Shown: positions 23,557 to 25,468 of the stretch, piece after piece | How the letters are laid out: the number at the start of each line of letters is the position of its first letter | Numbering within the stretch: the stretch's first letter is position 1 | Virus genome (UHGV): UHGV-0122056 | Origin: a virus | DNA length: 25,468 nt | Reading direction: 5' to 3' (one strand) | Translations under genes and position numbers: made by a program | The notes under the pieces: generated by a model | Seen by the model: the letters and a program-made list of their open reading frames with translations, nothing else | The model's database searches: none | What the model was told of the DNA's origin: nothing

Positions 23557-24642
23557 TTAATCTTCAAGTGGGTTTTTATTATCTTGCAAGTATTTTTTCG
23601 CAATCCACATCATTCCATTGATGCTTAAATGACCATTGTCATGGTACATAGGGTATCCCATTGCGAAAGGTGTGTATTTTTTATTCTTAAGCATTAGGTA
23701 GTAAGGATCAACAAGATAAACATTATTAAAATGTGATGCTGCGCTTTCTATTTTTTTACGCGACTCATCCAATCCTGGTGCTAGATCAAAATTAGTTTCA
23801 GCATCACATGTTCCTCTCTCGTAGCAGGCAGCGGGATTTATTACCCACTCAGGCATTTGATCCATAATAATAACTTTCTTTGCGTGAGATGAGTAAAATG
23901 ATAGGAACTCGGTGAAGTTAGCGTTTTTATATGACATATTCTTATCATCTCTTGCCCATCTATTAGCAATGATAATTGTATCATATTTACCAGATTTTAT
24001 TTTTTCATTAATTATTCTTCTGAAGTTTATGCAGACATCAGGGTTTTCTCCATCTTTCTTAACTTCTCTTGTTGGGTAACAAGATGAAGTGCTCAGTTGA
24101 TTTATTTTTATTCCAGCCCTGCGACCCATTTCATCTACAAATGGACCGTAATGCCCTGCATTGGAATCACCAATATATAGAGCTTCTTTATTTGATGTTT
24201 TATCACCTATATAACATTTGGCCATAGACTCATTAAAAGTTATGCCATTTTTTCCTTCTGCGCTAACATGACACCATCCTTCGTCCATTCCAGCATATTT
24301 CACATCTAAATTATGATTTTCTCCTACACTTCTGAATTTGAAGCCATTTGTTATAGTTGACATAAACAACACAATAAAAGCAGTTGCAATAAAAAATGTG
24401 TTAATAAAAATAAAAGAACGAACAAATGATATTTTTGATTTTCTTATTGGATTCTCAATGAATTTTAAACTTAAATATGATAAAATAAATGTCAGGAGTA
24501 CTATTGTCAATTTGACTTCAAGTGAGTCTATCACTCCCATATATGTTGAATATGCAATCAACGGCCAGTGCCAAAGATATATTGAGAATGATAGCAATCC
24601 AATTGTGGATATTATTTTTGAACCATAGATTTTTGATATCAC
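23557..24642 (-). CDS. Acyltransferase (AT3) C-terminal portion plus SGNH-hydrolase domain; out-of-frame continuation of 24650-25468
   Basis: Begins in the last AT3 helices (...SFSIYLWHWPLIAY...) and continues into an SGNH-like domain (...YIGDSNAGHYGPF...); has no own ATG or RBS (the track uses GTG); its frame is open upstream to the poly-G tract. Confidence 0.7.
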   Translation of the reverse strand: MISKIYGSKIISTIGLLSFSIYLWHWPLIAYSTYMGVIDSLEVKLTIVLLTFILSYLSLKFIENPIRKSKISFVRSFIFINTFFIATAFIVLFMSTITNGFKFRSVGENHNLDVKYAGMDEGWCHVSAEGKNGITFNESMAKCYIGDKTSNKEALYIGDSNAGHYGPFVDEMGRRAGIKINQLSTSSCYPTREVKKDGENPDVCINFRRIINEKIKSGKYDTIIIANRWARDDKNMSYKNANFTEFLSFYSSHAKKVIIMDQMPEWVINPAACYERGTCDAETNFDLAPGLDESRKKIESAASHFNNVYLVDPYYLMLKNKKYTPFAMGYPMYHDNGHLSINGMMWIAKKYLQDNKNPLED

Positions 24643-24649
24643 ATTGCCA

Positions 24650-25468
24650 TTAAAACCGTTCCCCCCCTAAAATTACTAACATTGCACCAAATGATGGTAT
24701 CGCAGAATTTAACCCAGGAAACACTGATAATTTGTTCACTGTTACAGATGATGCCGCAATAAGAATAGTACCTAATATTACTACTATGTAAGAATTAAAC
24801 TCCCTTATTTTTTTATAATCTCTATTCATTAATGCTAGGGCGGACCCTAGAAGCAAGCCTCCAGAGCGTGTGATTGGCATATAATATGAGAACCCAGCGT
24901 AACGCCTTGCCATTATTTCAGAGAATATAAAGGCAAATACTGAAATTATTAATGTAATAACACCAATATGTTTTGTCTTAATGTGCTTTAGTGCAAGTAA
25001 AATAATAATTGGCCATATAAAGTAATATTGCTCCTCTACGGCCAATGACCACATATGAAGTAGTGGCATCTCATCTGCAGAAGATGAAAAATAAGCTCCT
25101 GTCGCTTTCCAAAAATAAAAATTAGCAGCGTAGATGGATGTGTACAAATAGCTACTAATAAGTGAAGAATAATCCTTTGGTAATAGGATGAACCATCCGG
25201 CTATAATTGTACAAGATGCAACTAAAAAAACATTTGGTACTATTCTCTTTATTCTTCTGTTAAAGAAGTCAGATAATGAGAAACTATTTCTGCCAATAGC
25301 TTTTATAACAATACCAGTGATAAGAAATCCAGAGATAACGAAGAAGACATCAACACCAATAAAGCCACCACTAAAAGGTGATAGCTTGAGGTGATAAGCA
25401 AAAACAAGAAGGACAGCAAGTGCTCGTAGGCCATCAATATCAGATCTATATCGTGTAGTCATGGTCAT
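24650..25468 (-). CDS. Acyltransferase family 3 (OafA/Oac-like O-antigen acetyltransferase) N-terminal portion, truncated by frameshift
   Basis: Starts at the window edge (MTMTTRYRSDIDGLRALAVLLVFAYHL..., typical AT3 N-terminus), multiple TM helices; terminates at TAA immediately after the homopolymer; upstream RBS lies outside the window. Confidence 0.75.
   Translation of the reverse strand: MTMTTRYRSDIDGLRALAVLLVFAYHLKLSPFSGGFIGVDVFFVISGFLITGIVIKAIGRNSFSLSDFFNRRIKRIVPNVFLVASCTIIAGWFILLPKDYSSLISSYLYTSIYAANFYFWKATGAYFSSSADEMPLLHMWSLAVEEQYYFIWPIIILLALKHIKTKHIGVITLIISVFAFIFSEIMARRYAGFSYYMPITRSGGLLLGSALALMNRDYKKIREFNSYIVVILGTILIAASSVTVNKLSVFPGLNSAIPSFGAMLVILGGERF
24661..24667. repeat. Homopolymeric C7 (G7 on the coding strand) at the junction of the two acyltransferase reading frames
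   Basis: Seven consecutive C; removing one C joins 24650-25468 to 23557-24642 in one frame (...ILGG-NGFNGNVISKIYG...). Confidence 0.9.

Follow-up and report, generated by a model that had tools for sequence, protein, structure and literature searches.

Is an O-antigen acyltransferase gene that is interrupted at a run of seven G residues a phase-variable gene caught in its OFF state, or is it a gene that was recently lost through a single slip of one base? The question is raised by the right end of the virus genome UHGV-0122056, a stretch of 25,468 nucleotides (the window, which means this whole stretch), where two consecutive open reading frames (ORFs) on the minus strand together make up one gene that is broken at a homopolymer. 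The interruption is best read as a recent, sporadic frameshift, which has probably turned a known serotype-conversion gene into a null allele. On present evidence, a phase-variable gene is less likely than a sporadic null allele, and an evolved high-frequency ON/OFF switch is not supported; we infer that the gene loses its function by G7 and that the switching rate is low. The gene and its kind are already known, and novelty is limited to the G run behaving as a hot spot.

The acyltransferase gene occupies positions 23557 to 25468 of the minus strand and consists of 1911 nt encoding 636 amino acids when the run has six G residues. In the window, the run has seven (positions 24661 to 24667, minus strand, C7 on the plus strand); it is the sole G or C run of at least six bases in the 25,468-base window. 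The minus strand reads GTA ATT TTA GGGGGGG AAC GGT TTT AAT GGC at the break, and the run is normally G6, which encodes Gly268-Gly269 as GGG GGG. The length of the repeat sets the reading frame. With G7, the upstream ORF ends with ...VILGGERF* after 272 amino acids; with G6, the frame reads ...LGGNGFNGNVISKIYGSK... and continues into the downstream ORF, which results in a product of 636 amino acids with no interruption; the G8 and G5 frames both end early with ...TVLMAM*. The 5' fragment (24650 to 25468, minus strand) has an ATG start and 272 codons followed by a TAA stop, and it covers the AT3 membrane domain except for its C-terminal quarter and then encodes the out-of-frame tail ERF*. The 3' fragment (23557 to 24642, minus strand) encodes the final helices of AT3 and a linker helix, followed by the periplasmic SGNH domain, which matches PF19040 with 115 bits. 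A sequence-only reading of the window had proposed that the two minus-strand ORFs form one OafA-like AT3+SGNH gene, that they are separated by a single-base length change in the C7 run, and that the downstream ORF lacks an independent start. The first proposal is borne out by Pfam and PHROG matches on the 636-residue G6 reconstruction, and the position of the run and both translations across the junction proved correct. The third stands in part: an in-frame GTG is present at position 24642, 8 nt past the stop, and further ATGs are found later; however, no plausible ribosome-binding site precedes this GTG, because the only purine-rich stretch upstream of it is the G run itself, which lies 18 nt away.

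Domain searches with the G6 reconstruction placed the Pfam domain Acyl_transf_3 (PF01757) at residues 10-331 (84.3 bits, cut-off 31) and the Pfam domain 'SGNH fused to AT3' (PF19040) at residues 399-627 (113-115 bits, cut-off 27, profile positions 2-247/248). Both domains of the joined translation are thus found above the cut-off on one protein, as the sequence-only reading had expected. Over its full length, the G6 form also matches PHROG 6705, 'O-antigen acetylase' (E = 1e-146), while sequence and profile searches against solved structures gave nothing meaningful. In the window, the AT3 match is cut in two, with positions 3-230 of the PF01757 profile in the first ORF and positions 265-322 in the second. 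In an alignment of 24 sequences, the residues R15, H26, G433-D434-S435, D610 and H613 are invariant, and all of them are present in the ORFs of the window. The 5' fragment possesses the invariant R15 and H26 and lacks the invariant YLWHWP block (residues 297-302); the GDS (S435) and DxxH (D610, H613) motifs of the SGNH domain are intact in the 3' fragment. The break therefore falls between invariant AT3 blocks and parts AT3 from the SGNH domain.

The region was compared by megablast with 5,426 complete E. coli genomes, and the gene was found in 24 of them, every match being one base shorter than the query. All 24 copies have G6 and are intact, and in all of them AT3 and SGNH lie on one continuous polypeptide, which is not the case in the window with its stop five codons past G7. 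Among the carriers, around 15 genomes belong to the O104:H4 outbreak clone and three are sub-strains of MRE162. In A11, O104:H4 2011C-3493 and NCTC9104, the gene is annotated as a single intact 'acyltransferase family protein' coding sequence; the base that is missing relative to the window was confirmed to lie in the run for A11, and the O104:H4 and NCTC9104 copies translate uninterrupted. A11, an E. coli isolate from giraffe faeces (CP028763), carries beside bioA-ybhB a prophage that equals the window at all other 25,467 bases, and the sole difference in 25 kb is G6 in A11 versus G7 in the window. The event is recent, because there is no other difference from A11 in the window. These comparisons agree with the earlier view that the window holds the OFF state, which G7 produces by an early stop, and among the explanations offered with that view, recent pseudogenisation fits best. 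The same stop in related prophages, which that view had named as the mark of a fixed pseudogene, is not seen in the 24 complete genomes, all of which have G6.

How often the run changes its length was surveyed at the protein level by exact-sequence look-ups in a collection of 15 billion proteins, followed by inspection of the contigs. Intact alleles were present on 323 + 69 + 35 + 36 + 2 contigs (around 465) of this public collection, and frameshifted alleles on only a handful. Three tract lengths other than G6 were detected (G5, G7 and G11), which belong to three lineages; G5 was found in two sequencing runs of one other strain (SRR24502284 and SRR24502288). The gene also contains seven A or T runs of 6-7 bases, in which one change was seen, and the other three of the four observed homopolymer changes fell in the G6 run. 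As G5, G7 and G11 recur at the same run in different lineages, no coding site of the gene is more mutable than the G run, which is a slippage hot spot. This is in line with the indel rates of E. coli, which have been described to increase exponentially with the length of a homopolymer (PMC8510543).

The G11 run was found in the isolate assembly GCA_048655085.1 (L099 4973-4983), whose prophage is located at dacD and in which the AAC following the run is now AC. This copy additionally has a T7 to T6 frameshift at nt 239 and no other indels in 4.3 kb besides those of an upstream repeat, and it looks like a decaying pseudogene with an expanding run, but may be an assembly artefact. A further product, P0135, comprises the 268 C-terminal (SGNH) amino acids of the O104:H4-type allele and is encoded as a separate ORF on seven contigs, including GDV96368.1 of isolate ExPUPEC96, which implies some upstream disruption of the gene. 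For this allele, no N-terminal product with G5, G7 or G8 that would account for the seven contigs was found.

A phase-variable gene in the usual sense, which had been proposed as a candidate from the sequence, is not supported by these comparisons. The ON tract is only six bases long, and the tract is not conserved, because four orthologs keep the conserved Gly-Gly with the codons GGT GGT, GGA GGG, GGT GGG and GGA GGA and hence without a G run. These orthologs were obtained individually, as the genome scan with the family alignment was uninformative on the tract; among the matches listed by that scan, the relatives were 26-36% identical and were picked up via very general AT3 motifs. The collection of 15 billion proteins yielded neither the in-frame variants G3 and G9 nor products of G4, G8 or G10, and the tract does not vary among the around 15 independently sequenced outbreak-clone genomes or among the three MRE162 sub-strains.

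Two sets of points weigh against a sporadic loss; some of them would suit a contingency locus, and others concern the calling of the run lengths. In a low-rate contingency locus, the G6 run would be kept and would slip reversibly from G6 to G7 or G5 and back, and lysogens would hold a small O-acetylation-negative subpopulation, which is enriched by phages, tailocins or antibodies that need acetylated O104. The length changes at this one run in three lineages speak for such a locus, and three lengths (G5, G7 and G11) in three backgrounds exceed the recurrence at a neutral site. Furthermore, both OFF frames stop within 3-8 codons, and within 25 kb the G run is the only difference between the window lineage and A11. 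GGG is the rarest glycine codon of the gene (6/43), and two of these six codons stand side by side at the run of this gene with its G+C content of 34%, which weakly hints that the choice of codons is not random. Other species have AT3 acetylases that vary in phase through different mechanisms (PMC9558356). In V. cholerae, the poly-A tracts of the O-antigen genes wbeL (A8) and manA (A9) are short and switch, and these genes are contingency loci under phage pressure even though they are ON in nearly all isolates; an OFF manA allele was present in 2 of 37 strains (PMC3441752). The rarity of OFF alleles in assemblies is therefore compatible with a switch that is in use. However, a contingency locus is opposed by the six-base length of the ON tract, its lack of conservation in orthologs, the lack of in-frame length variants and of G8 products, and the invariance of the outbreak clone and of the MRE162 sub-strains, between which a nearby 8-bp repeat does vary; in addition, no reversion was observed. 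A low-rate contingency locus is thus considered unlikely, and a sporadic loss of function remains the preferred reading.

The second set of points concerns the extra G itself, which could have arisen by faulty sequencing or assembly of a metagenome contig with low coverage, so that the strain would truly have G6 and an intact gene. G7 is present in three metagenome assemblies (JGI 3300013958, ENA ERZ1758143 and ENA ERZ28597689), which match the window with 100% identity. Two ENA contigs of the gut metagenome SAMN01760980, ERZ1758143 NODE_860 and ERZ28597689 KARL12-1_SAMN01760980 scaffold_797, have the window as their first 25,468 bases, and the contig of JGI 3300013958 overlaps with it. The JGI and KARL12-1 contigs are identical throughout their overlap; ERZ1758143 differs at 10 bases, which are located in the bioA flank only. 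Because three assemblies made by different pipelines carry G7, it is probably real. Across the prophage, these assemblies show no further discrepancy relative to A11, although the 25 kb contain many A or T runs of 6-8 bases. Consensus errors of short reads at a run of seven bases are uncommon. On the other hand, homopolymers are the classic site of indel errors, the SPAdes coverage of the G7 contig is only around 8.5, tract lengths were called from assemblies and not from reads, and G6 is found in every inspectable isolate genome with this allele. The three assemblies share five copies of the upstream repeat and match across the prophage; they may go back to a single sample, as re-assemblies of one read set. 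One of the two G5 assemblies (L100) has two further deletions in G/C runs, and its G5 call may stem from error-prone reads. The G6 calls of A11 and NCTC9104 are less certain as well, because both long-read genomes lack single bases in homopolymers of the O104 cluster: in A11 (L097), A5 has become A4 in wzy and A6 has become A5 in a glycosyltransferase gene, and in NCTC9104 (L098), the same glycosyltransferase gene has T7 in place of T8. RefSeq marks the affected genes as frameshifted or split, and the deletions are either long-read homopolymer undercalls or the sign of genuinely rough strains. The agreement of the three assemblies on G7 makes an error, which the sequence-only reading had also considered, unlikely.

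Finally, it is hardly credible that the split gene is still expressed, either by transcriptional or ribosomal slippage on the G run or by re-initiation at the GTG at 24642, which would give two assembling polypeptides: homopolymer runs can support transcriptional slippage and the GTG lies close behind the stop, but the runs known to give efficient transcriptional slippage have at least nine A or T, and G7 is shorter; moreover, the GTG has no ribosome-binding site, the break lies inside the AT3 membrane domain between invariant blocks, and a plain in-frame G6 has been retained in all other genomes, as an argument that the protein works in one piece.

What the sporadic loss would take from the cell depends on the role of the intact gene, for which its distribution provides a clue. 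The O104 wzy-GT-wzx segment (GT, glycosyltransferase) is found in 37 of the 5,426 complete genomes, and all 24 carriers of the acyltransferase gene are among these 37. The carriers are not all one clone, and their prophages are inserted at three integration sites, namely argW (O104:H4 and 55989, with an intact intS), dacD (NCTC9104) and bio (ybhB/bioA; A11 and the window lineage). In all three sites, the neighbouring tailspike is of the O104 type; the association of the acyltransferase with O104 is strict. The tailspike of O104:H4 was experimentally shown to be O104-specific, and the adjoining gene was noted as a putative O-antigen acetylase (Scholl 2012, PMC3303846). The O104 unit contains Neu5Ac,7Ac,9Ac (PMC7685785). 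Based on these associations, the intact gene is a putative acetylase, which probably acetylates the O104 O-antigen of E. coli; the O104 cluster encodes its own soluble acetyltransferase as well, so that these associations point to no particular O-acetyl group for the membrane enzyme. Relatives with 60-67% identity occur in Enterobacter and other enterobacteria, where they are also prophage-borne and adjoin tailspike or tail-fibre genes.

The locus can be described as a lysogenic-conversion acyltransferase of a P22-like prophage in O104 E. coli, in which an inner-membrane AT3 domain is joined to a periplasmic SGNH domain when the gene is intact. As judged from the family (PMC9558356), the AT3 domain of the intact enzyme would pass an acyl group, most likely acetyl, across the inner membrane, and the SGNH domain would transfer it to the O104 repeat unit in the periplasm, thereby altering the receptor that is presumably recognised by the neighbouring tailspike. 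In the window lineage, replication slippage probably added one G to the G6 run, leading to the stop five codons later. The N-terminal fragment lacks YLWHWP, and the C-terminal one has neither the catalytic His and Arg of AT3 nor a ribosome-binding site, which would make the gene a null allele. The G run can in principle slip back and is best seen as an occasional hot spot for loss of function.

A second repeat is located outside the window, around 205 nt upstream of the acyltransferase ATG. This 8-bp tandem repeat, (GTTTAATA)n, has its start within the final codons of intS (...DGLIV*), where the homology to generic intS ends, and its unit (GTTTAATA) brings stop codons in every frame. Three copies are present in TOK-001, four in the 55989 group, five in the window lineage and in the outbreak clone (all of the around 15 genomes; O104:H4 L002 3759-3798), seven in GCA_048655085.1 (L099), nine in NCTC9104 (L003 3727-3798) and twelve in A11 (L001 3703-3798); in MRE162 (L103, L104), the sub-strains UK and FRA have 13 copies and NOR has five. 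The 8-bp repeat varies far more than the G run does and would be the better candidate for any rapid modulation of the gene, which it might bring about by changing transcription into the gene or the spacing before it. It is conceivable, but doubtful, that the G6 run as a low-rate reversible OFF switch and the repeat with its 3-13 copies form an O104 module, in which both together tune O-antigen acetylation. If this were true, the E. coli lineage that includes the 2011 outbreak strain would possess a contingency system, carried by a phage, for an O-antigen that contains sialic acid. A promoter scan gave no more sites than in shuffled sequence and none in the upstream region of A11. An epigenetic switch by Dam and OxyR was considered and rejected, as the 240 nt that separate the end of intS from the ATG contain no GATC; the closest one lies 326 nt upstream, inside intS.

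As a whole, the window represents the right arm of a P22-like, Lederbergvirus-type lambdoid prophage, and its end coincides with the ATG of the acyltransferase gene. According to the annotation of A11, it contains the replication and nin genes, Q, two tRNA genes, lysis genes, terminase, portal and P22 coat, followed by gp4, gp10, needle, ejection proteins, Arc/Mnt and tailspike. The tRNA genes, tRNA-Asn (GTT) at 4413-4487 and tRNA-Thr (TGT) at 4493-4568, are located between the Q antiterminator and the lysis genes. The P22-type tailspike gene (21507 to 23486, plus strand) encodes 659 amino acids with an N-terminal head-binding domain (PF09008) that is conserved and a receptor-binding part of the type found in O104 strains. 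It is convergent with the acyltransferase gene, and the order in O104:H4 is intS-acyltransferase-tailspike, in agreement with the proposal that the gene sits in a serotype-conversion slot. Directly 3' of the acyltransferase stop, a perfect 15-bp hairpin followed by UUUU is found (23500 to 23534, minus strand), which has a folding energy of -24 kcal/mol (z = -5.7) and is not equalled by any of 200 shuffled sequences. This hairpin is a probable transcription terminator between the two convergent genes, although a simple terminator scan did not have it among its listed sites. With 34% G+C versus 46.6% for the window, the acyltransferase gene has a composition typical of morons that were acquired horizontally.

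Beside ybhB/bioA, A11 and the window lineage have only 84 bp of the integrase gene left, a C-terminal remnant (L001 3633-3716, beyond the end of the window), and this prophage is probably unable to excise. The same 25 kb of prophage are identical in the giraffe isolate A11 and in human-gut metagenome contigs; on the bio side, the flanks of the metagenome contigs differ from A11 by 0.6-0.9%, which may reflect a mixed-strain consensus in metagenome assembly. A mosaic joint is located inside the tailspike gene (window 21507-23486 versus O104:H4 L002 5982-7961). The acyltransferase gene and the last around 230 nt of the tailspike gene are 98-99.5% identical between O104:H4-type and A11-type prophages, and the remaining receptor-binding part of the tailspike is only around 82% identical or not aligned by megablast. 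The acetylase and the tailspike's C-terminus appear to travel together. A megablast of the region against a phage collection gave no match, and no sequenced free phage there has the gene.

If the preferred reading of a sporadic loss is true, the result is mostly ordinary: a null allele of an annotated lysogenic-conversion gene that had been noticed before, with the short G run as its weak point. Nevertheless, the strict tie of the gene to O104 across three integration sites strengthens the proposal of a putative O104 modification in the lineage of the 2011 outbreak. In addition, the A11-type and window-type alleles are a natural isogenic pair of ON and OFF, which is usable for questions on the substrate and on recognition by phages, the AvR2-O104 tailocin or antibodies. 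If low-rate switching were true instead, the locus would be an E. coli example beside the O-antigen switches of V. cholerae at short homopolymers.

Compared with known systems, the wbeL and manA genes of V. cholerae O1 likewise have short homopolymers in O-antigen genes that are ON in nearly all isolates, and a phage specific for the O-antigen selects for their OFF frameshifts (Seed et al. 2012, PMC3441752). However, these tracts are longer and conserved in all 37 O1 strains, and switching has been demonstrated by experiment, reversibly for manA, whereas the run in the window is known from sequence alone. The oafA gene of H. influenzae also encodes an AT3 acetylase of a surface glycan, the lipooligosaccharide, which is switched ON and OFF by frameshifts due to repeat length, and the first sequenced H. 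influenzae strain carried oafA in a frameshifted form (PMC9558356). In contrast to the gene of the window, oafA has a tetranucleotide repeat array and is chromosomal rather than phage-borne. The Salmonella enzymes OafA and OafB have the same PF01757 + PF19040 architecture and presumed mechanism, and their genes are often phage-associated. Their homology to the window protein is at the profile level only, and they act on abequose or rhamnose, whereas the substrate of the window enzyme would be the sialic-acid-containing O104 unit. Salmonella oafB is phase-variable by an epigenetic, Dam-dependent mechanism, and the gtr genes of P22 use a Dam/OxyR mechanism; without an upstream GATC, the latter is excluded for the window gene, which differs from oafB in the same respect.

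NeuO, which is encoded by the P22-like prophage CUS-3 of E. coli K1, is an O-acetyltransferase whose substrate is a polymer of sialic acid, and slipped-strand mispairing inside the coding region switches it. It is a soluble hexapeptide-repeat enzyme with a long heptanucleotide repeat array and high switching rates, in contrast to the six-base homopolymer described here. A phase variant of K1 O-acetylation has been mentioned (PMC8653822). The gene order at the locus resembles that of Shigella phage Sf6, a P22-like phage in which Oac is likewise an O-antigen acetylase moron between tailspike and int and confers serotype conversion (cited in PMC3303846). For the window gene, the AT3 domain is fused to an SGNH domain. 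Sf6 Oac is an AT3-only enzyme that lacks this fused domain, and its gene is not known to undergo homopolymer switching. The same gene as in the window is found in the P22-like prophage remnant of E. coli O104:H4 and 55989, where it was described as a 'putative O-antigen acetylase' (EGR74046 / WP_000178979; PMC3303846). Both copies adjoin a tailspike gene and share 99.5% DNA identity and an identical upstream region of 215 nt, and their products differ by two amino acids (G59D and K624E). The window copy is set apart by its diverged tailspike allele, its other prophage backbone, its location at bio rather than argW, and the G7 run in place of G6.

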